Part shown: piece by piece, positions 42,682 through 50,228 of the stretch
Layout: each line of letters begins with the position of its first letter
Numbering within the stretch: the stretch's first letter is position 1
NCBI GenBank assembly: GCA_964554715.1
Contig: CAZKPU010000002.1
Coordinates: 1-61,953 of the forward strand
Source: an uncultured Thermotogae bacterium
GTDB taxonomy: Bacteria > Bipolaricaulota > Bipolaricaulia > UBA7950 > UBA9294
Direction of reading: 5' to 3'
DNA length: 61,953 nucleotides
The notes under the pieces: generated by a model
Told to the model about the DNA's origin: nothing
Database searches by the model: none
What the model saw: only the letters and a program-made list of their open reading frames with translations
Made by a program: the position numbers and the translations under genes

Positions 42682-43995
42682 ATGAGCAGGGCAATCACAT
42701 GGACATCGCGAAGGGGTTTCGCGTGGGTGGTGGGACTGGGGGTGATCGGCTGTCTTGCTCTGGTTGGGATCGCCGCTGCTGCAGAGTCTCCCGTCTCGAT
42801 TGTCCGCCCCGAAGCTGAGGGGTTCCGCGTATCGGGGACAGCCGCGGAGCGCGTCTGGTGCGTGACGCAAGGAGACTACGTAGAGTGGATGTGGACCGGC
42901 CAAGAGGTCGACGAGAACCGGATCGAGCGGGCTGCCATCAACATCACGGCGTGGACCTCGGATCGGGTTCTGGGGGATGCAGGAGCGGATGTGGATGTCT
43001 TGATCTCGATTCGCTGTTTGGGCGGCAGCGTTGTCGAGTCGGGGGTCCTGCACCTCGTCAATACGTTTGAGCCGCAGGGAGCCGCTGCGCTGGAGGTCGA
43101 GCGATCGGCGTATGTGGCCCGGGGGGCGTACGTTCTCCGGAACCCGGGGGTGATCTCCCGGGGGTTCCGAGTGCGACTTGAGCCAGTGACGCCGACCACC
43201 GGGTCCGAGTCCATGACCGGGACCCGATCGAGTGCAGGCGTGTTCGCGGCGGAGAGTGGGGACGCAGGGTTGGCGTATCGCGTCTCCGAGAGCGTTGGCG
43301 GGTTGGCGGAGATCCTCGCTGATCCACAGGCGTACGAGGGAAGAAGTGTGCGGCTTGATGGAGCCTTCTACGGGGCCGTTACCGAACTCGTGGACGGCGT
43401 TCCCCCTGAGTGCACGTTTGGCGGTTGTGACTTCTGGGTCTTCGGGGTCGATGGTTGGTACGTCTATGTGATCGGATCGCTCCCGGCGGGTCTGGACGCG
43501 GCGGTGCCCGGCGATCTGGGAGCAAGTGTGACGATCGAGGGAACCGTTCGCGTGCAGCTCAGCAGAGCGGCTTGTCCATACGCCTACGTGGATCTGGTCT
43601 CGGCGATCCCCGGTGAAGCGGCGTTCGACCTTCGCATCGTCGGCATAGGCACGGCAGACGGTCAAGAGGTCGTGCTTCCGTCGGGCGCCACGTTGGCGAT
43701 CGACCTGCCCTCGAACCCCACGACGGGATACCGATGGGAGGTTGAGTCGCTGGAGCCTGAAGGGGTCGCTTCCATCGCGGGCAACGGATCGGGCTTTGAC
43801 GTCCCGGATCCCGCGGATCGTGACCGTGTTGGCGTGGGGGGCATCCAGCGGTTCGTCGTCCTCGGCGAAGGCGTAGGAGATGCGGTTCTACAGCTGGTCT
43901 ACCGACACGCATCGGGGGACGCAGCGTCCGACGGATTCCAGCTAACGATCCATGTTGTCGCCCCGTCCGTCCTGATCAGACCGGACGAATCGTAG
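42682..43995 (+). CDS. secreted multidomain protein with C-terminal chagasin/I42 protease-inhibitor-like domain
   Basis: signal peptide; LPSNPTTGYRW and GVGG-QRF...L-LVYR motifs. Confidence 0.75.
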   Translation: MSRAITWTSRRGFAWVVGLGVIGCLALVGIAAAAESPVSIVRPEAEGFRVSGTAAERVWCVTQGDYVEWMWTGQEVDENRIERAAINITAWTSDRVLGDAGADVDVLISIRCLGGSVVESGVLHLVNTFEPQGAAALEVERSAYVARGAYVLRNPGVISRGFRVRLEPVTPTTGSESMTGTRSSAGVFAAESGDAGLAYRVSESVGGLAEILADPQAYEGRSVRLDGAFYGAVTELVDGVPPECTFGGCDFWVFGVDGWYVYVIGSLPAGLDAAVPGDLGASVTIEGTVRVQLSRAACPYAYVDLVSAIPGEAAFDLRIVGIGTADGQEVVLPSGATLAIDLPSNPTTGYRWEVESLEPEGVASIAGNGSGFDVPDPADRDRVGVGGIQRFVVLGEGVGDAVLQLVYRHASGDAASDGFQLTIHVVAPSVLIRPDES

Positions 43996-44045: not shown

Positions 44046-44513
44046 CTAGGGTTCCGGCTCTACCGGTGCGACAAGATCGGCGGTCCACTCGAAGGTATGG
44101 GGAGTCCCGTCGTTCCATTGTGTTCCTGTTCCCGTGATTTGCGAGTTGTCGACTTCGCCGTCCAGAGCGATCTGGACAAGAAGCGACGGCGTGACCAGAT
44201 CCATCGTTCCGCTTGCGTCGAGAGAGAAGTCTCGGCTTCCGACAACACCGTCATTGATTACGATGGCAAACGATTGGCCACCGGGGCCGGGCAGTCGCAC
44301 TTCCCCTTGGAGAGACGAGCCGTCCTGAGTAAGCACCATGGAGAACGGACTCCACAAGCCGTTTGCGTCCCACGTAATCCGTCCGGACCAAGTCCCTCCC
44401 ACCTCCGCCGGAGGAGACAAGACGCTGCATCCGGCAAACAGAACGGAACACAGAACACATCCGCACAACGCGGTCACCCGGTAGGCTCTCCTCTTACCAC
44501 AATTCCACATCAT
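44046..44513 (-). CDS. putative lipoprotein, beta-rich
   Basis: lipobox LFAGC, GGTWSG strand start, SD GAGGGG. Confidence 0.75.
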   Translation of the reverse strand: MMWNCGKRRAYRVTALCGCVLCSVLFAGCSVLSPPAEVGGTWSGRITWDANGLWSPFSMVLTQDGSSLQGEVRLPGPGGQSFAIVINDGVVGSRDFSLDASGTMDLVTPSLLVQIALDGEVDNSQITGTGTQWNDGTPHTFEWTADLVAPVEPEP

Positions 44514-44877
44514 GTCCCCCTCTTCGAGACTGCAAGGATGATTCTGGTGAGCCGAGCCGTCTGCAGCAAGGGAAAGTGACCCCCGTACATTGGGTCCGAT
44601 GTCTCAAACTCACTGCGAACTTGCCCTCGTGGAACGAAACGTCATAGGGTCATCGTGTGTAACTGTGATGTCTGCAGCGGACGGTCGTCGAAAGGGATCA
44701 CCCACTGCGAGGGCCGCCGGCGGATTCCGATCTCCTCACGGTTCCTCTGGTGGTGCTGGCGTGACGGGTCCCGGGAACAGGGAGTTCCGGACGGATCGCT
44801 CCGGCCTTCGACCTAGATCCGGCTGTGTGGTGCATCCTTGAGCGATCGTGTAAGGATGCTTGGCAAAGGAGGTTGAC

Positions 44878-47800
44878 GTGAGATCGGCAAGGTTGCTCTT
44901 TCTGGTTGGACTCGTCTTGGTGGGTGCCTTCGCGGGAGCCACGTGGGCGCAGAGCTCCACCGAGATACCGGTTTTGGCGAATGTTGTGCAACTCGCGCAA
45001 GCTTCGGCTACGGCCGCAGCTGCTGCGGCGGCCGAAGCGGAGGCGATCGAGGAGGAAGCCCGCCTTCTGCTTGCAGAGCTGGATTGGGAAGATGTGTTGA
45101 CGGAGGCGGCGGAGGCTGTCAGCGAAGCGCAGGCTGCCGCGATGTCGGTTGCAGCGGCGGAGGCCGAGGTCGAAGCGACAGCTGCCAGTCATGCCGAAGC
45201 CTGCAGTGAGGCGTTGGCGTCGGCGCAGGCGAGCGCCACGGCGGTCGAATCGGTCTACGCTTGGGCACAAGCTCGAGCGGACGCGTTTGCTGCCGCGTGC
45301 GCCGATGCGCGAGCCCGTGCTGAGGCAAGTGCCTCCGCGTGCGCAGTAGCGATTGCGGAAGCGGAGGCGACAGCGGACGCGTTTGCACTGGCGTGTGCGG
45401 AAGCCGTCGCGCATGCGGGAGCGTCGGCGTCGGCGTGTGCGTCCGCGAGGGCTGAGGCGGAAGCATCCGTTGAAGCGATGGCGCTAGCGATTGCAGCAGC
45501 TGCTGCGGAGGCACAAGCGAGTGTTTCGGCGTGTGTATCTGTTGAGGCGTCGGTGGCGAGCTACGCGGAAGCGATCGCGGAGGCGATGGCGGAAGCGATC
45601 GCCATGGCGGAAGTTCGAGTGACAGCGGCGGCTGCCGCGTATGCCAGCGCCAGCGCCGAGGTGGAAGTCTGCGCGGAGCTTGCCGCAACTGCCGAAGTCC
45701 GCGCCACGGCTGTGGCCCAAGCCGCTGCTCAGGCGGCCGCCTACGCAGCGGCCACGGCATCGGCGTACTCCCAAGCGCAGAGCATCGCTCAAGTCGTTGG
45801 ACAGAATATCGCGCAGGAAGTTCCCTGCGGAGTCGTCGTTGGTGAAGTCCGAGGTGTTGTACAGGCGATCGCGACAGCGGTTGCCGAAGCGGATGCTGCG
45901 GCGCAAGCCGCGGCGCAAGCGGCCGGACTGGCTCAAGCGACGGCCTCAGCGCAGGCGGAGGCGGCTGCGTCTGCCTATGCGAGAGCGGTCGCCGAAGCCG
46001 ATGCATGCGCGGTGGCCTACGCAGAAGCACGGGCAGCCGCTCAAGCGATCGCTCGGGCGAGCGCCTCTGCAGAGGCGGAGGCGTTTGCGGCAGCGGAGGC
46101 GGTAGCGGAGGCCCGAGCGGAAGCGGTCGCGTACGCTCAAGCGATTGCGTTTGCGGCGGCGCGAGCGGAGGCGGCCGCGGAAGCGGCGGCAGAAGCGATC
46201 GCCATCGCCGAGAGCGATGCAAGAGCGCAGGCGACGTCGGCTGCTTCGGCGTGTGCGATGGCATCTGCACATGCAGAAGCGATGGCGCGAGCGATGGCCG
46301 GAGCGAAGGCTACCGCAGAAGCGAGTGCTGCGGCGATCGCCAGCTCGTGCGCGGAAGCATCTGCACACGCAGAGGCAATGGCGTCGGCGGTTGCTCAGGC
46401 GAGAGCCACGGCTCGCGCTGCGGCGACGGCTGCGGCGACGGCCTGCGCGGAAGCGGATGCGTCGGCGAGAGCATGGGCGGCAGCGTATGCCACGGCCAGT
46501 GCTCGTGCCGCTGCAGCTGCGAGTGCGTCGGCAAGTGCATTTGCAAGGGCTCAAGCTGCGGCTTCTACGATGAGTGATGCAGTGTCATCCGCAGTGGCCA
46601 GGGTTTCGATCCAAGCGGCTGCGTGTGCAGCGGCGTCCGCGGAGGCGCAGGCAGCGGCGGCTAGCTGTGCCAGCGCCGCCGGCACAGCGAGTGCGTCGGC
46701 GGAGAGTGAGGCATCGGCCGCTGGAACGGGCTTTGCCTACGAGCAGGCGTATGCGGCGGCCGTAGCGACAAGCTCGGCGGATGCGTTCGCGTATGCTCAG
46801 GCGGCTGCTGCGGCTGCCGCGCGAGCGCAAGCGGCTGCGCATGCGGCTGCGGAGGCTTACGCGGAGGCCCAAGCCGCTGCGACCAGTGGAGTGCAGGCGA
46901 TCTGCGAGGCCACGGCCACGGCACAGGCCGAAGCGCGGGCGTGTGTCTCAGTCTACGCGGATGTGTCGGCCGAGGCCGCAGTCTATGCAGCGGCGGTGGC
47001 ACAAGCGATGAGTGAAGCCCAGGCCGCCGCGGTTGCAGCAGCGAAGGCCGAAGCGGAAGCTCAGGCCGAAGTGGCCGTTGCGGTCGATGCGATGGCTGCG
47101 GCGCAGGCGGAAGCCGAAGCCTATGCTCATGCGGCGGCGCTTGCGCAGGCTGAGGCGGCGGCACAGGTCGGTGTTGGCGTGGAAGCGATCGCCGTTGCGC
47201 ATGCCGATGCGTATGCAGCGGCCCTCGCGGGAGCTCGCGCGGCCGCGTCTGCGGAGGCCGAAGGGGCCGTTGCTGCGCAAGCGGCAGCAGCGGCGTACGC
47301 TGATGCCGTCGCCAATGCGTTTGCGGCGGCTCGTGCAGAGGCATCCGCTCACGTGCGGGCGTTCACTGCGGTGAGGGTGTTGGCGTCGGCTCAAGCGGAG
47401 GCGCTGGCATCGGCTGAGGCGTTGGCCGTGGCGTTCGCTGCGGCATCAGCGTCGGCCCAGGCGGCAGCGCAGGCATCGGTTCGAGCGACGGTGTCAGCCG
47501 AAGCGTGTGCATCCGCTCTCGCGCAGGCCTTCGCGATGGCGAATGCGGCTGCAAGTGCCCAGGCTACCGCGGAAACCTCTGTTGAGGTTGTTCCGGAGAT
47601 CGAACTGTCGATCCGTTCGTTCATCGATCCGGAGTGCTTGCTGCCCGTTTGCGAGCGGGAGATTCCTACGATCTGTCCCGCCTGCGATTCGTGCTGTCCA
47701 GAACCGCAAGAGAGACCTGATGACGTCATCCCGACACCGGGGTGTCCGGAAACGGTCTCTCTCACCTGGGAGATCGGAGAGGTCCCGAGCGGCATGTTCT

Positions 47801-48819
47801 ATCGGAGCAGCCTCTCGATCCCCTATTCGGTTTGGGCACCGATGGCCGGCTACGAACTTGCCGGGGCGATCCCGATCAGCAGCAGCATGCCGCCGGATGG
47901 ACAGATCAGCGTCGATGTCTCGAGCCGCATGGCCTCGCTGTCGGGAACCTTCGAAGCGGGTGCCAGTTACAGCGCTACGTTCGATCTGATCGACTACCGC
48001 CAATGCACGATCGGAAGGCTCACGGTGGTCCTCACCGGTGAGGGCCGGTACGTTCCGGATCTGAGCCGTGTTTGCATGACGGTCACGGCGGTTCACGAGC
48101 AGCCGGGGTTCCTGTTCTTCTCGGGGACAACGACCGAGATTGCGGCCAGGATCACGGTGAACTACGCGCAGGAGCGGCAAACCCCGTTCCAGCTGTGCGA
48201 TGACCCGAGAGAGCGGTACAACCTGACGGCCAGCTCCTATACGTTCAGCACCGAACGGGAAGAGATCCCGTTTGACCGGTGGGAGAAGTACGATCCCAAT
48301 TCGGATGCGTGGGTCACGATCGGAGAGCAGGAAACGGTCAGCGTTTCCATGGAAGCGGAGGCCGCGTATCGGGCGGTGTACACGGGTGAAGGACCGACGA
48401 TTACGGTCACCCCGGTCCCCGATGTTTCGGTGGTGACCCCGTGCCTGGAGATTAGCGCGGTGGTCATGTACGAGCGGATTCGATCAACAACGTTCACGTT
48501 GCAGCAATCGCCGCAGTACGAGACGGAGGCGATCTATCCGCAGATCATGGTGGATCGACAGGCAAGAGTTGCCCCGTTCCAGCTGTGCGACTCGCAGCGA
48601 CGGCAAGTCACGCTGGAGCCGGAAGCGGAGCACTGGACCGAGGAAGAACAGTACCTCGAGTTCTGGAAGTGGCAGCGCTACGATCCGCAGAGTGAGACGT
48701 GGAACGATATCATCATGCTGCAGCTTTTCGGTTCCGCGCCTTCGAACGCCCTGCGAGTCACGCTGGGATCCAGCGGTCAGATCCGGGCCGTCTATCGGCA
48801 AGGCACGATGCTCTACTAG
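44878..48819 (+). CDS. giant secreted (Ala-X)n-repeat protein with Cys-rich linker and tandem C-terminal beta domains; unknown function
   Basis: 1319-codon ORF; GTG after AAGGAGG; signal peptide ending ATWA; GCN codons at alternating positions. Confidence 0.9.
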   Translation: MRSARLLFLVGLVLVGAFAGATWAQSSTEIPVLANVVQLAQASATAAAAAAAEAEAIEEEARLLLAELDWEDVLTEAAEAVSEAQAAAMSVAAAEAEVEATAASHAEACSEALASAQASATAVESVYAWAQARADAFAAACADARARAEASASACAVAIAEAEATADAFALACAEAVAHAGASASACASARAEAEASVEAMALAIAAAAAEAQASVSACVSVEASVASYAEAIAEAMAEAIAMAEVRVTAAAAAYASASAEVEVCAELAATAEVRATAVAQAAAQAAAYAAATASAYSQAQSIAQVVGQNIAQEVPCGVVVGEVRGVVQAIATAVAEADAAAQAAAQAAGLAQATASAQAEAAASAYARAVAEADACAVAYAEARAAAQAIARASASAEAEAFAAAEAVAEARAEAVAYAQAIAFAAARAEAAAEAAAEAIAIAESDARAQATSAASACAMASAHAEAMARAMAGAKATAEASAAAIASSCAEASAHAEAMASAVAQARATARAAATAAATACAEADASARAWAAAYATASARAAAAASASASAFARAQAAASTMSDAVSSAVARVSIQAAACAAASAEAQAAAASCASAAGTASASAESEASAAGTGFAYEQAYAAAVATSSADAFAYAQAAAAAAARAQAAAHAAAEAYAEAQAAATSGVQAICEATATAQAEARACVSVYADVSAEAAVYAAAVAQAMSEAQAAAVAAAKAEAEAQAEVAVAVDAMAAAQAEAEAYAHAAALAQAEAAAQVGVGVEAIAVAHADAYAAALAGARAAASAEAEGAVAAQAAAAAYADAVANAFAAARAEASAHVRAFTAVRVLASAQAEALASAEALAVAFAAASASAQAAAQASVRATVSAEACASALAQAFAMANAAASAQATAETSVEVVPEIELSIRSFIDPECLLPVCEREIPTICPACDSCCPEPQERPDDVIPTPGCPETVSLTWEIGEVPSGMFYRSSLSIPYSVWAPMAGYELAGAIPISSSMPPDGQISVDVSSRMASLSGTFEAGASYSATFDLIDYRQCTIGRLTVVLTGEGRYVPDLSRVCMTVTAVHEQPGFLFFSGTTTEIAARITVNYAQERQTPFQLCDDPRERYNLTASSYTFSTEREEIPFDRWEKYDPNSDAWVTIGEQETVSVSMEAEAAYRAVYTGEGPTITVTPVPDVSVVTPCLEISAVVMYERIRSTTFTLQQSPQYETEAIYPQIMVDRQARVAPFQLCDSQRRQVTLEPEAEHWTEEEQYLEFWKWQRYDPQSETWNDIIMLQLFGSAPSNALRVTLGSSGQIRAVYRQGTMLY
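45157..47580 (+). repeat. degenerate 96-nt (32-aa) tandem repeat / (Ala-X)n low-complexity region
   Basis: GCGGACGCGTTTGC at 45277 and 45373; GCATCTGCACA at 46261 and 46357 (both pairs 96 nt apart). Confidence 0.85.
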
Positions 48820-49008: not shown

Positions 49009-49875
49009 TCACGGGATCGGCAGGTAGTCGACAACCGTGGGCAGCCCGTCGAACCGGATGAAGAACCCGACGTAGTCCTGCGGGTCGTCGTCTACATAGC
49101 CCGTCCAGACCTCCACCAGCCTTGCATAGAACAGATCGAGAAGCCCCACGGGGATCTCGGCGAGCGGTAACACCAGGGTCAGCGGGACCCCGGTAACCAG
49201 CTCCACAATCCCTGCATCAAACGTGTCGAAGATCGTCACGGCTTCCGGGAGCCACGAGGTCGTATACGCCAGTCCGGCGAACACCTCGCACGGGCCGACG
49301 TAGGTTGTGTCGCCGGAGTTGACGATCGTGATCTGCACCTCGCCGCCCGGCGCTCCCGTTGCCCCTCCGGCGCCAGCCGGCGCCTCGATCGAGACGATGT
49401 CGGCGCGGACGACCGGCGGAGGGGGGATCTCGTACTGGTAACGCAGAATCGATTCCAAAATGGTTACAAGCCACCCACTGGATGTGCTGTCGATGTCCAG
49501 CCAGATGTCGAGCAGACCGTCTCCGAATAACGTCGTGAGATCAGAAATGGTGAGGACAGTGTCCGCTGTTCCGTGATTCTGGCCGGTCAGCGCTCCCAAT
49601 AGGACTCCCTCTGCGTACACAAGATCACGCTCACCCTGGGCGTAATCCACATCCCAGGCCTTGATTGTCAACGTCGCATCTGGGAGGATCCAACCCGGAC
49701 GGATCCCGGCGCCCAGCGTGTGTGTCCAACCGAAGTCCTGTAAGGCTCCCCGGTACTGCCCGAACCCCGGCTCCGAATCCAGAACCTGTTCCACCGTCAC
49801 TGGAGTCGCAAGAGAGATGACCCCGGTAACGATCACTCCGATCAGCAGGAAGAGAACAACCCTTCCCTTCATCAT
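49009..49875 (-). CDS. secreted two-domain protein downstream of a c-di-GMP riboswitch
   Basis: signal peptide; ATLTIKAWDVD...LLGALTG jelly-roll-like domain; PPPP linker; Ig/CARDB-like second domain; SD GAGGAGG. Confidence 0.8.
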   Translation of the reverse strand: MMKGRVVLFLLIGVIVTGVISLATPVTVEQVLDSEPGFGQYRGALQDFGWTHTLGAGIRPGWILPDATLTIKAWDVDYAQGERDLVYAEGVLLGALTGQNHGTADTVLTISDLTTLFGDGLLDIWLDIDSTSSGWLVTILESILRYQYEIPPPPVVRADIVSIEAPAGAGGATGAPGGEVQITIVNSGDTTYVGPCEVFAGLAYTTSWLPEAVTIFDTFDAGIVELVTGVPLTLVLPLAEIPVGLLDLFYARLVEVWTGYVDDDPQDYVGFFIRFDGLPTVVDYLPIP

Positions 49876-50138
49876 CGCCTCCTCTTTCCCGTTTGAGTTT
49901 CCGATGCTTCTTTGAGGGACGAACTGCATTGCGGACGAATCCAACGTCGCAATCCTCCTCCCGGTGCAACCCGTGAGAGAAATCGGACCTGCGACACCCT
50001 ATCCGGCGAGCTTGTGGAAGAGACGGATCGGATTTCGAGAGCGGTGGATGCATCAAGCGGTTTCGCGGAGCACAAGGACCCGTTGCTGCCCAACTCCTTG
50101 AACGAACGGACCACATCAGCATTGCCGGCCTCCCGGCT

Positions 50139-50213
50139 CCGGCAACTCGGCTACCCGATTCGATGTGGCCCGTGGCTTTGCGTCCCGCTCTCTCGCGCGG
50201 TTTGCCCTTTTCG
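50139..50213 (-). ncRNA. c-di-GMP-I (GEMM) riboswitch
   Basis: minus strand GGCAAACCGCGC-GAGA-GAGCGGGACGCAAAGCCACGGGCC...GGTAGCCGAGTTGCC; P1 GGCAA/TTGCC, GNRA-capped P2, GGGACGCAAAGC core. Confidence 0.88.
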
Positions 50214-50228
50214 GAGCATCCTTTTCGG

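Follow-up and report, generated by a model that had tools for sequence, protein, structure and literature searches.

The gene and its alanine-alternating tract

The stretch of DNA analysed here, contig CAZKPU010000002.1 from an uncultured bacterium, measures 61,953 nt and is referred to as the window. It contains a gene for a long protein in which Ala alternates with other residues (X) over hundreds of positions, an (Ala-X)n tract. The open reading frame (ORF) has 1319 codons and spans 44860..48819 on the forward strand. GTG at 44878 was chosen as the true start codon because a perfect AAGGAGG sits 5 nt upstream of it in the sequence. The product has 1313 residues. By inspection, its N-terminus reads as a Sec signal peptide, MRSARLLFLVGLVLVGAFAGATWA followed by QSS, with GAFAGATWA directly before the predicted cleavage site. 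A lipobox Cys was not found in this signal peptide on inspection of the translation. The features of the gene are listed below, with what each assignment is based on. Tract columns are numbered from aa 30 of the 1313-residue protein, which is column 1.

44866..44872, forward strand: Shine-Dalgarno sequence AAGGAGG (direct sequence reading)
44878..48819, forward strand: whole gene, 1313 aa, with signal peptide, putative (Ala-X)n rod, Cys/Pro linker and three immunoglobulin (Ig)-like domains (ORF and Shine-Dalgarno sequence)
44878..44949, forward strand: Sec-type signal peptide, aa 1-24, predicted cleavage after TWA (translation by inspection)
44965..47574, forward strand: parity-locked (Ala-X)n tract, 870 aa, in degenerate 32-residue units of nine predicted turns (sequence statistics)
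44965..45765, forward strand: proposed arm 1, columns 1-267 (hydrophobic-moment phase, Cys columns)
45127..45222, forward strand: 32-residue unit, columns 55-86, missing from 16 short-class orthologs; holds Cys column 80 (ortholog alignment)
45766..45864, forward strand: break 1, proposed hairpin 1, columns 268-300, ...YSQAQ...EVPCGVVVGEVRGVV (conservation, phase jump, helix break in the AlphaFold2 (AF2) model)
45865..46716, forward strand: proposed arm 2, columns 301-584 (hydrophobic-moment phase, Cys columns)
46405..46500, forward strand: 32-residue unit, columns 481-512, missing from short-class orthologs; holds Cys column 494 (ortholog alignment)
46717..46782, forward strand: break 2, proposed hairpin 2, columns 585-606, AAGTGFAY...ATSSADAF (conservation, phase shift, AF2 helix break)
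46783..47574, forward strand: proposed arm 3, columns 607-870 (hydrophobic-moment phase)
47059..47154, forward strand: 32-residue unit, columns 699-730, missing from short-class orthologs (ortholog alignment)
47575..47655, forward strand: terminal motif TSVEVVPEIELSIRSFIDPECLLPVCE, family-defining (conservation among homologs)
47575..47739, forward strand: Cys/Pro-rich linker (modelled as disordered, with a predicted local distance difference test score (pLDDT) below 50)
47740..48045, forward strand: predicted Ig-like beta-sandwich domain 1, He_PIG-like in homologs (structure model)
48064..48390, forward strand: predicted beta-sandwich domain 2, FQLC...FDRWEKYD...YRAVY (structure model)
48433..48807, forward strand: predicted beta-sandwich domain 3, an internal repeat of domain 2 (structure model)

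The alternation is strict. Between aa ~42 and ~899, Ala occupies 350 of the 429 in-phase positions (~82%), versus 68 of the 429 out-of-phase positions (16%). The Fourier power of Ala at period 2 is 92.7, versus a maximum of 2.9 among 1000 shuffles. The Ala indicator alone has no 3.5-residue periodicity in the Fourier analysis of the tract. The parity of Ala is unbroken in the window protein, even across the non-repetitive break at nt 45766-45864. The 870 residues of the tract include 2 Pro, 15 Gly and 4 Asn, and the X positions hold a mixture of E, S, V, Q, R, T, Y, I, C, L, M and F. An earlier note on this DNA, made from its letters alone, had described a secreted protein with Ala at nearly every second residue on the same parity throughout, Pro nearly absent, Gly and Asn scarce, X residues both polar and bulky, and one non-repetitive break at nt ~45769-45864. 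All of these descriptions hold, and the break was located correctly.

A recent DNA tandem repeat was ruled out as the origin of the tract. There is no 96-nt tandem array, and all four Ala codons are present. Tandem Repeats Finder reports only short arrays of 6-42 nt within the tract, and nucleotide self-identity is 0.489 at lag 96 versus about 0.46-0.47 at other lags.

ORFs on the reverse strand over the tract (45119-47795), for example at 47127-47315 and 47391-47795, also read (Ala-X)n. This is because the GCN-NNN pattern is self-complementary in one reverse frame. These ORFs are interrupted by stops and were rejected as genes.

The 32-residue unit and the probable fold of the tract

A longer period lies beneath the alternation. 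At the non-Ala positions, self-identity of the protein peaks at lags of 32, 64 and 96 residues. When the tract is written in rows of 32, its Cys and aromatic columns align. In arm 3, V-G-V motifs recur every 32 residues at columns 641-771.

The same unit governs the length of the tract among orthologs. We compared 27 orthologs, the window protein and 26 full-length relatives. Their tracts fall into two length classes, ~870 residues in 11 species and ~774 in 16 species, each within +/-2 residues. The 27 sequences align over 874 columns though their non-Ala identity drops to 25-30%. Apart from three 32-residue blocks, the alignment contains only two indels, of 2 and 3 residues. The three blocks (columns 55-86, 481-512 and 699-730) are always missing together in the short class. 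Parity is locked end to end in 26 of the 27 orthologs. L027 carries the 3-residue indel, after which its parity is switched. The claim of selection against odd-length indels, also made earlier, is thus strongly supported: apart from that in L027, the indels are even and nearly all exactly 32 residues. Because the lengths fall into two classes with almost no other indels despite low identity, the tract, judged by this alignment, is a fixed-length structure and not a drifting low-complexity region.

The earlier note had taken the period-2 Ala pattern as the signature of flat beta-sheets or a cross-beta silk, and had stated that it does not fit a coiled coil. Analysis of the residues between the alanines supports neither statement. 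Because every second residue is Ala, the periodicity of X is aliased, and X-only data cannot separate a period of 3.556 residues from its alias of 4.571. X hydropathy power at 32/9 (or its alias) is highly significant in 11 of 12 segments from seven homologs. In the column average of the 27 sequences, 32/9 = 3.556 residues is the top hydropathy peak in both tract halves (P = 45.9 and 60.3); the periods 7/2, 18/5 and 11/3 are weak. The 4.57-residue alias was ruled out because the residues at non-Ala in-phase positions (~12%) are phase-coherent with 3.556. The phase of their residual hydropathy differs from that of the X moment by only 8 and 19 degrees (p < 0.0001 and p = 0.0006, permutation). 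A strong periodicity near 3.5 residues, which the earlier note had named as contrary evidence, is therefore present at 3.556 residues in the 27-sequence hydropathy profile. The Fourier analysis of Ala that it had proposed confirmed period 2, but the helical period shows in X hydropathy and not in the Ala indicator.

A direct and largely alias-free test is provided by the large X residues around in-phase V, I or L. They are over-represented at offsets +3, +7 and -11 (z = +4.5 to +5.8), which share one helical face, and under-represented at +/-1, -5 and -9 (z as low as -5.9). On a helical wheel, X residues within 36 degrees of the seam centre are 65% FILMVWYC, 11% polar and 23% Ala. At more than 72 degrees from the seam, polar residues make up 75-82% of X. 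Ala holds 87-91% of the in-phase positions in every wheel sector; the minority residue is Val towards the seam and Ser towards the outside. Pairs of opposite charge are most enriched at i+4 (z = 3.6). The residue propensities of the tract are 1.23 for helix versus 0.92 for strand, and Pro occurs at 1.3 per 1000 residues. Together these patterns indicate that the tract is very probably an alpha-helical coiled coil.

On such a helix, 32 residues would make nine turns of 3.556 residues each, equivalent to 7+7+7+11, or three heptads and a hendecad. In the narrow seam, two large X residues (C, I, V, L, M or F) at i and i+4 would alternate with two Ala at i+7 and i+11. About half of the seam is Ala; the remainder is Cys or large residues. 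Because 4 is even, parity is geometrically meaningful on a helix, and the alternation would make each i+/-4n ridge all Ala or all X. A period-2 pattern of small residues alone is thus no proof of beta structure. Helical periods alias when every second residue is fixed, and the alias must be broken explicitly.

The phase of the hydrophobic moment divides the tract into three parts. It is constant at about -60 degrees in columns 33-272, about +165 in columns 321-624 and about -150 up to column ~830. The changes are located at the two conserved breaks, with a jump at break 1 and a shift of ~40 degrees at break 2. Break 1 reads TeVPCGtVVTEVgGVV, in which P287 and C288 are invariant and G289 and G297 are conserved. 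Break 2 reads AAGTGEAY…TSSAD, in which G587 and Y592 are invariant. The helix breaks in the low-confidence AF2 model of the tract match the PCG and GTG motifs of the two breaks.

The three co-occurring 32-residue indels are distributed one per phase block, and their mirror centres, 283.5 and 605.5, lie at the breaks. A similar arrangement is found in two distant homologs, P0005 and P0006, which share 67% identity. Exactly three internal 32-residue indels separate them (P0005 100-131, 390-421 and 549-580). The mirror centres here, 260.5 and 485, correspond to a CTTV…G break (259-270) and a parity slip at TEGK (~479-488). This suggests a second, independent event in which a slice was changed in all three segments. 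An antiparallel three-arm bundle requires matched slices, and a parallel homo-oligomer does not. Three antiparallel arms are suggested because one slice was gained or lost per segment, at the same axial level, on two occasions.

Some Cys positions point in the same direction. Conserved core Cys are found in arm 1 at columns 112, 126, 144, 158 and 190, with column 80 added in the long class. Those in arm 2 are invariant at columns 430 and 462, with 494 added in the long class. Two variable core Cys, at columns 236 and 348, co-occur in 6 of 6 cases, in at least two clades (Fisher p = 9.5e-5), and lie at equal distances on either side of column 292, which is inside break 1. The pairs 190/394, 158/430, 126/462 and 236/348 have column sums of 584-588.

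We propose that the chain folds back at PCG...G (columns 287-297) and at GTG...TSSAD (columns 585-606). The three antiparallel arms, of about 280-320 residues each, would form a three-helix rod of ~42-47 nm. Its length would be altered by taking one 32-residue slice (~4.7 nm) from, or adding one to, all three arms together, and core Cys may staple the arms. We regard this fold-back as probable, with moderate confidence. The reading of the whole protein that we favour, also held with moderate confidence, is that of a secreted, phylum-specific structural protein with an Ala-rich coiled-coil rod that is alpha-helical and not beta.

A number of observations weigh against this reading. AF2 models of the tract from seven sequences are all-helix but have a mean pLDDT of 46.7 and a predicted template modelling score of 0.29, and all-helix is what AF2 returns by default when given Ala-rich sequences; apart from its helix breaks, the model was given no weight. 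Only a small residual signal is left at the in-phase positions, since these are ~88% Ala. The V/I/L offset pattern is asymmetric, with no enrichment at -3 and -7. This reading does not account for the conservation of Ala on the solvent-exposed face. The three-arm model is based on two evolutionary events and symmetry arguments, and the position of a 32-residue gap is fixed only to within whole units, since the sequence itself has a period of 32. Columns in the Cys series 80/112/144 and 430/462/494 add up to 574, outside the 584-588 of the other pairs, and on these sums the idea of one disulfide scheme covering every conserved Cys was rejected. The correlation of seam profiles between arms 1 and 2 is best at a mirror sum of 584 (r = 0.63), with 0.61 in the parallel control, and the remaining arm pairs match modulo 32 only. 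No SLH domain, lipobox, sortase signal or barrel anchor was found in the window protein and its orthologs. No gene neighbour is conserved across the phylum, and function is argued from architecture alone.

The helix could also extend without folding back. Two to four chains would then form a parallel fibril of ~115-130 nm, in which the breaks are only hinges, as in M protein, tetrabrachion or the stalks of trimeric autotransporters. The evidence for a seam at 3.556 residues applies equally to this arrangement, a single narrow seam suits two- to three-stranded coiled coils, the phase is continuous over 300-500 columns, and AF2 draws long helices. In such a fibril, however, a lone 32-residue indel would be harmless. 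Intermediate lengths would therefore be expected, and only ~870 or ~774 is seen in 27 species. Indels in threes and mirror symmetry are not required by it, and P0005/P0006 repeat the three-unit pattern. It is also disfavoured by the jumps in phase at the two conserved breaks, PCG and GTG, and by the symmetric co-occurrence of Cys 236 and 348 about break 1. We consider this arrangement unlikely. A functionless low-complexity or disordered spacer produced by repeat expansion would account for the high Ala content, and many unrelated proteins have (AE/AK)n tracts. This can hardly be credited given a length kept within +/-2 residues across species, conserved unique landmarks with invariant Cys, Phe, Met, Tyr and Gly columns, no repeat at the DNA level, and a non-Ala entropy of 3.67 bits versus 1.1-2.9 in simple tracts.

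Beta structure would have a natural basis in the strict alternation of small residues. The tract could form a cross-beta silk, or a flat beta-solenoid whose core is packed with Ala and in which, for example, the 32-residue unit equals one rung. Short (Ala-X)n peptides such as EAK16 form stable beta-sheets. This is highly improbable here, since X hydrophobicity follows 3.556 residues with phase-coherent in-phase substitutions, and large X residues avoid +/-1 of in-phase Val but favour +3 and +7. A narrow seam with all else polar makes no sense on a beta-strand, where every X would point to the same side. The E, Q, A and R composition favours helix (1.23 vs 0.92), and the Gly, Asn and Pro needed for ~54 turns are nearly absent. 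A material with two states would combine both structures: the protein would be secreted as a helical rod, and the rods would then either associate side by side in a dense sheath or fibre or turn into beta-sheet during assembly, of which coiled-coil insect silks are capable. This would be the reason for the alternation of Ala all round the helix. As alpha/beta chameleons, (Ala-X)n sequences can adopt either structure. Ala remains at 88% even opposite the seam, where a solitary three-helix rod does not need it, and honeybee silk is an Ala-rich, Alacoil-like antiparallel coiled coil of unusually small radius (PMC12284834). However, there is no evidence of assembly, and the C-terminal Ig-like domains and fixed length resemble a stalk or adhesin more than a bulk material. 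The gene is also usually single copy in a genome, though there are two copies in the PUMK01 assembly. We consider the two-state material improbable. Of the forms listed in the earlier note, only the last, a helical precursor that converts to beta, is compatible with these findings.

Family, proposed surface location and genomic setting

Sequence and profile searches found no relative in Pfam, NCBIfam or PDB. The only matches were to low-complexity regions: the TCERG1 QA repeat, Spt20, MED15 and eL29. The full 1313-residue protein has no Pfam match. NCBIfam NF033849 (ser_rich_anae_1) scores 18.7 bits versus a curated cut-off of 650. A literature search found no (Ala-X)n bacterial family and no coiled coils in Bipolaricaulota. 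By these searches the protein belongs neither to a characterised family nor to the Ser-rich type, as had been suggested before any search was made.

A search of 5.8 billion proteins found six real homologs, P0001-P0006. They have in common the AX tract, a conserved N-terminus, a VPCG-type break, VGVEAIA motifs and the terminal motif TSVxVVPxIxTSxxxFIDPxC. Residues S, V, P, I, D, P, C, L, P and C of the terminal motif are invariant. An exhaustive profile search returned 894 hits, mostly unrelated charged (AE/AK/AR)n proteins in which X is 80-100% charged with an entropy of 1.1-2.9 bits. The true family among them comprises about a dozen clusters with an X entropy of 3.5-3.7 bits. Since full-length and profile searches are swamped by charged AX tracts, true members were picked by the terminal motif. 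A profile of this motif retrieved only two 86-residue fragments from the protein databases. A scan of species-representative genomes found 35 loci with the motif, all in metagenome-assembled genomes (MAGs) of Bipolaricaulota/Acetothermia, some of which carry the placeholder label 'uncultured Thermotogae'. Full-length orthologs of 1200-1380 aa are present in 26 other genomes. As far as these genomes indicate, this is a previously unannotated family restricted to the phylum Bipolaricaulota/Acetothermia.

The gene is usually present once per genome. Acetothermia MAG GCA_003551325.1 (the PUMK01 assembly) contains two paralogs, L001 (PUMK01000307.1) and L020 (PUMK01000136.1). One is a short-class ortholog and the other is the divergent P0002, which has five He_PIG-like C-terminal domains. 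A further, possibly related set of proteins (P0010, P0011, P0024 and P0097) has an N-terminal domain ending in GE[IV]EDY, a complex AX tract of 170-280 residues with parity switches, and a Cys-rich C-terminal segment.

Beyond the linker, the three C-terminal Ig/FN3-like beta-sandwiches are modelled at pLDDT 80-90. Their structure matches are tandem Ig/FN3-like modules of pilins, invasins/adhesins, SiiE and S-layer proteins. Because homologs and orthologs carry He_PIG or BACON domains at the C-terminus instead, the rod is, by this comparison, conserved and the distal modules variable.

Candidatus Bipolaricaulis Ran1, the phylum's only described member, bears bipolar prosthecae and an atypical envelope that may be Thermotoga-like; its genome showed no recognisable pili or adhesins (PMC6092417). 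Coiled coils whose length is kept while their sequences diverge act as molecular spacers (PMC5082667). The rod may be a stalk or spacer of fixed length on the atypical, Thermotoga-like envelope of Bipolaricaulota. Its distal end would present the Cys/Pro-rich linker and the three species-variable Ig-like domains. This function is proposed because of the conserved length, the Ig-like distal domains and the precedent of length-conserved spacers; we put it forward tentatively. Alternation of Ala on all faces might in addition be an undescribed packing code. The uniformly Ala i+/-4n grooves and the X ridges would let three-helix rods interdigitate on every side and build a paracrystalline sheath or strut lattice, or undergo a beta switch on assembly, with length set in quanta of 4.7 nm. 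We regard this as speculative and rather unlikely. In a phylum that has no cultured members and whose envelope is poorly understood, the protein stands out as a specific candidate for a major structure of the surface or envelope. It may also provide a natural model for the control of helix packing by small-residue alternation, and a candidate scaffold for rigid rods of programmable length.

The window is ordinary chromosome, with rpoA, an rpoC-like ORF of 1660 aa, hydantoinase A/B, fpg and hypD/E. Its RpoA groups with a Candidatus Bipolaricaulota protein in a cluster at 90% identity. No operon partner emerged among the orthologous loci, where synteny is limited to the two closest genomes (L003 and L004). 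Two proteins are encoded just upstream of the gene: a secreted one of 437 aa whose C-terminal domain is a peptidase inhibitor of the chagasin family (I42) (42682-43995, forward strand), and a 155-aa putative lipoprotein (44046-44513, reverse strand). Both are conserved only in L003 and L004. A cyclic di-GMP riboswitch (c-di-GMP-I-GGC, 68.5 bits, E = 4e-14) is found at 50137-50215 on the reverse strand, with a promoter-like TTGACA/TATGGT just upstream of it (50258-50229, reverse strand). It precedes a gene at 49009-49944 (reverse strand), convergent with the AX gene. The 311-aa product of this convergent gene matches nothing in Pfam or NCBIfam and has a hydrophobic segment at its N-terminus. 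The arrangement of riboswitch and 311-aa gene is kept in L003 and L004.

Other neighbours recur at orthologous loci. A tRNA cluster (Leu-Gly-Leu-Met-Met-Ala) lies directly 3' of the gene in at least 11 loci (e.g. L008 11319-11623, L009 10579-11151 and L011 11529-12225). L011 has a second tRNA cluster upstream, and the window itself is without tRNA. A very Cys-rich secreted protein of ~188 aa (CCGCCEC…CSCCWGCNICSACAC) is encoded directly upstream on the same strand in eight loci, about 615 nt upstream in L007; it is absent from the window. Downstream of P0006, L002 11639-15769 contains a thioredoxin/AhpC-like gene and a 1173-aa zincin-like secreted protein (HEIGHNYDRYH). The latter has C-terminal 'SHE.TV.W.ASGG' modules, which are common to the C-termini of P0003 and P0004.

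Comparison with known systems

Honeybee silk is an Ala-rich antiparallel coiled coil with an axial stagger, in which Ala occupies core and core-flanking positions and the helices pack very closely (PMC12284834). The silks of bees, ants and hornets (AmelF1-4) and the Alacoils resemble the family described here in being Ala-rich helical coiled coils. The seam of the family is about half Ala, and its antiparallel fold-back is the proposed one. The insect coils have ~210 residues in plain heptads and are made from four separate chains, whereas the tract of the Bipolaricaulota family has ~870 residues in one chain. The family also differs in its strict Ala alternation on all faces, its unit of 32 residues and nine turns, its quantised length, its core Cys and its Ig-like C-terminal domains. 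Because the family is confined to one bacterial phylum, homology to the fibroins AmelF1-4 is unlikely; the two are not known to be related in sequence.

Thermotoga Omp-alpha/OmpA1, Deinococcus SlpA and OmpM are coiled-coil spacers or tethers of the envelope with conserved length (PMC5082667, PMC9388160, PMC3387000). Like the family, they are long rods from deep-branching lineages with atypical envelopes, and their sequences diverge while length is kept. Unlike them, the family is without a detected SLH domain, C-terminal beta-barrel or membrane anchor, and its composition and repeat grammar are unrelated. Its rod probably folds back, and the Omp-alpha/SlpA/OmpM type is a parallel trimer.

Parity-locked alternation over 150-500 residues is also seen in charged (Ala-Glu/Lys/Arg)n tracts, which occur in FtsY, Ser/Thr kinases, TolA-like proteins and many eukaryotic proteins. 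In those tracts X is 80-100% charged and has an entropy of 1.1-2.9 bits; in the window tract X is 38% charged or Gln, and the non-Ala entropy is 3.67 bits. The charged tracts have no amphipathic seam and no landmarks, and their length is variable. (Gly/Ala-X)n beta-silks and the flat, silk-like beta-solenoid antifreeze proteins have a small residue at every second position, as the family does. The family differs from them in the 3.556-residue period of its non-Ala residues and in missing turn formers. A closer likeness in pattern is found in Woesearchaeota P0016. Its (Ala-X)n tract (residues 330-511, ~180 residues) is complex in composition, with Q, S, I and V among the X residues, and its helical amphipathic period of 3.70 is very strong (power 104 versus a 95% shuffle maximum of 32). 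However, this period is hendecad-like and not 32/9, the terminal motif is missing and the domain context is different. P0016 is probably a convergent hendecad-type Ala-X coiled coil.

Among coiled coils, the predicted grammar of the family is unusual: (Ala-X)16 units of nine turns stay in register over 870 residues, and the length is altered only by coordinated 32-residue slices. Compared with these systems, the strict alternation of Ala on all faces, the 32-residue, nine-turn unit, the change of length by coordinated slices and the confinement of the family to a single phylum appear to be new.

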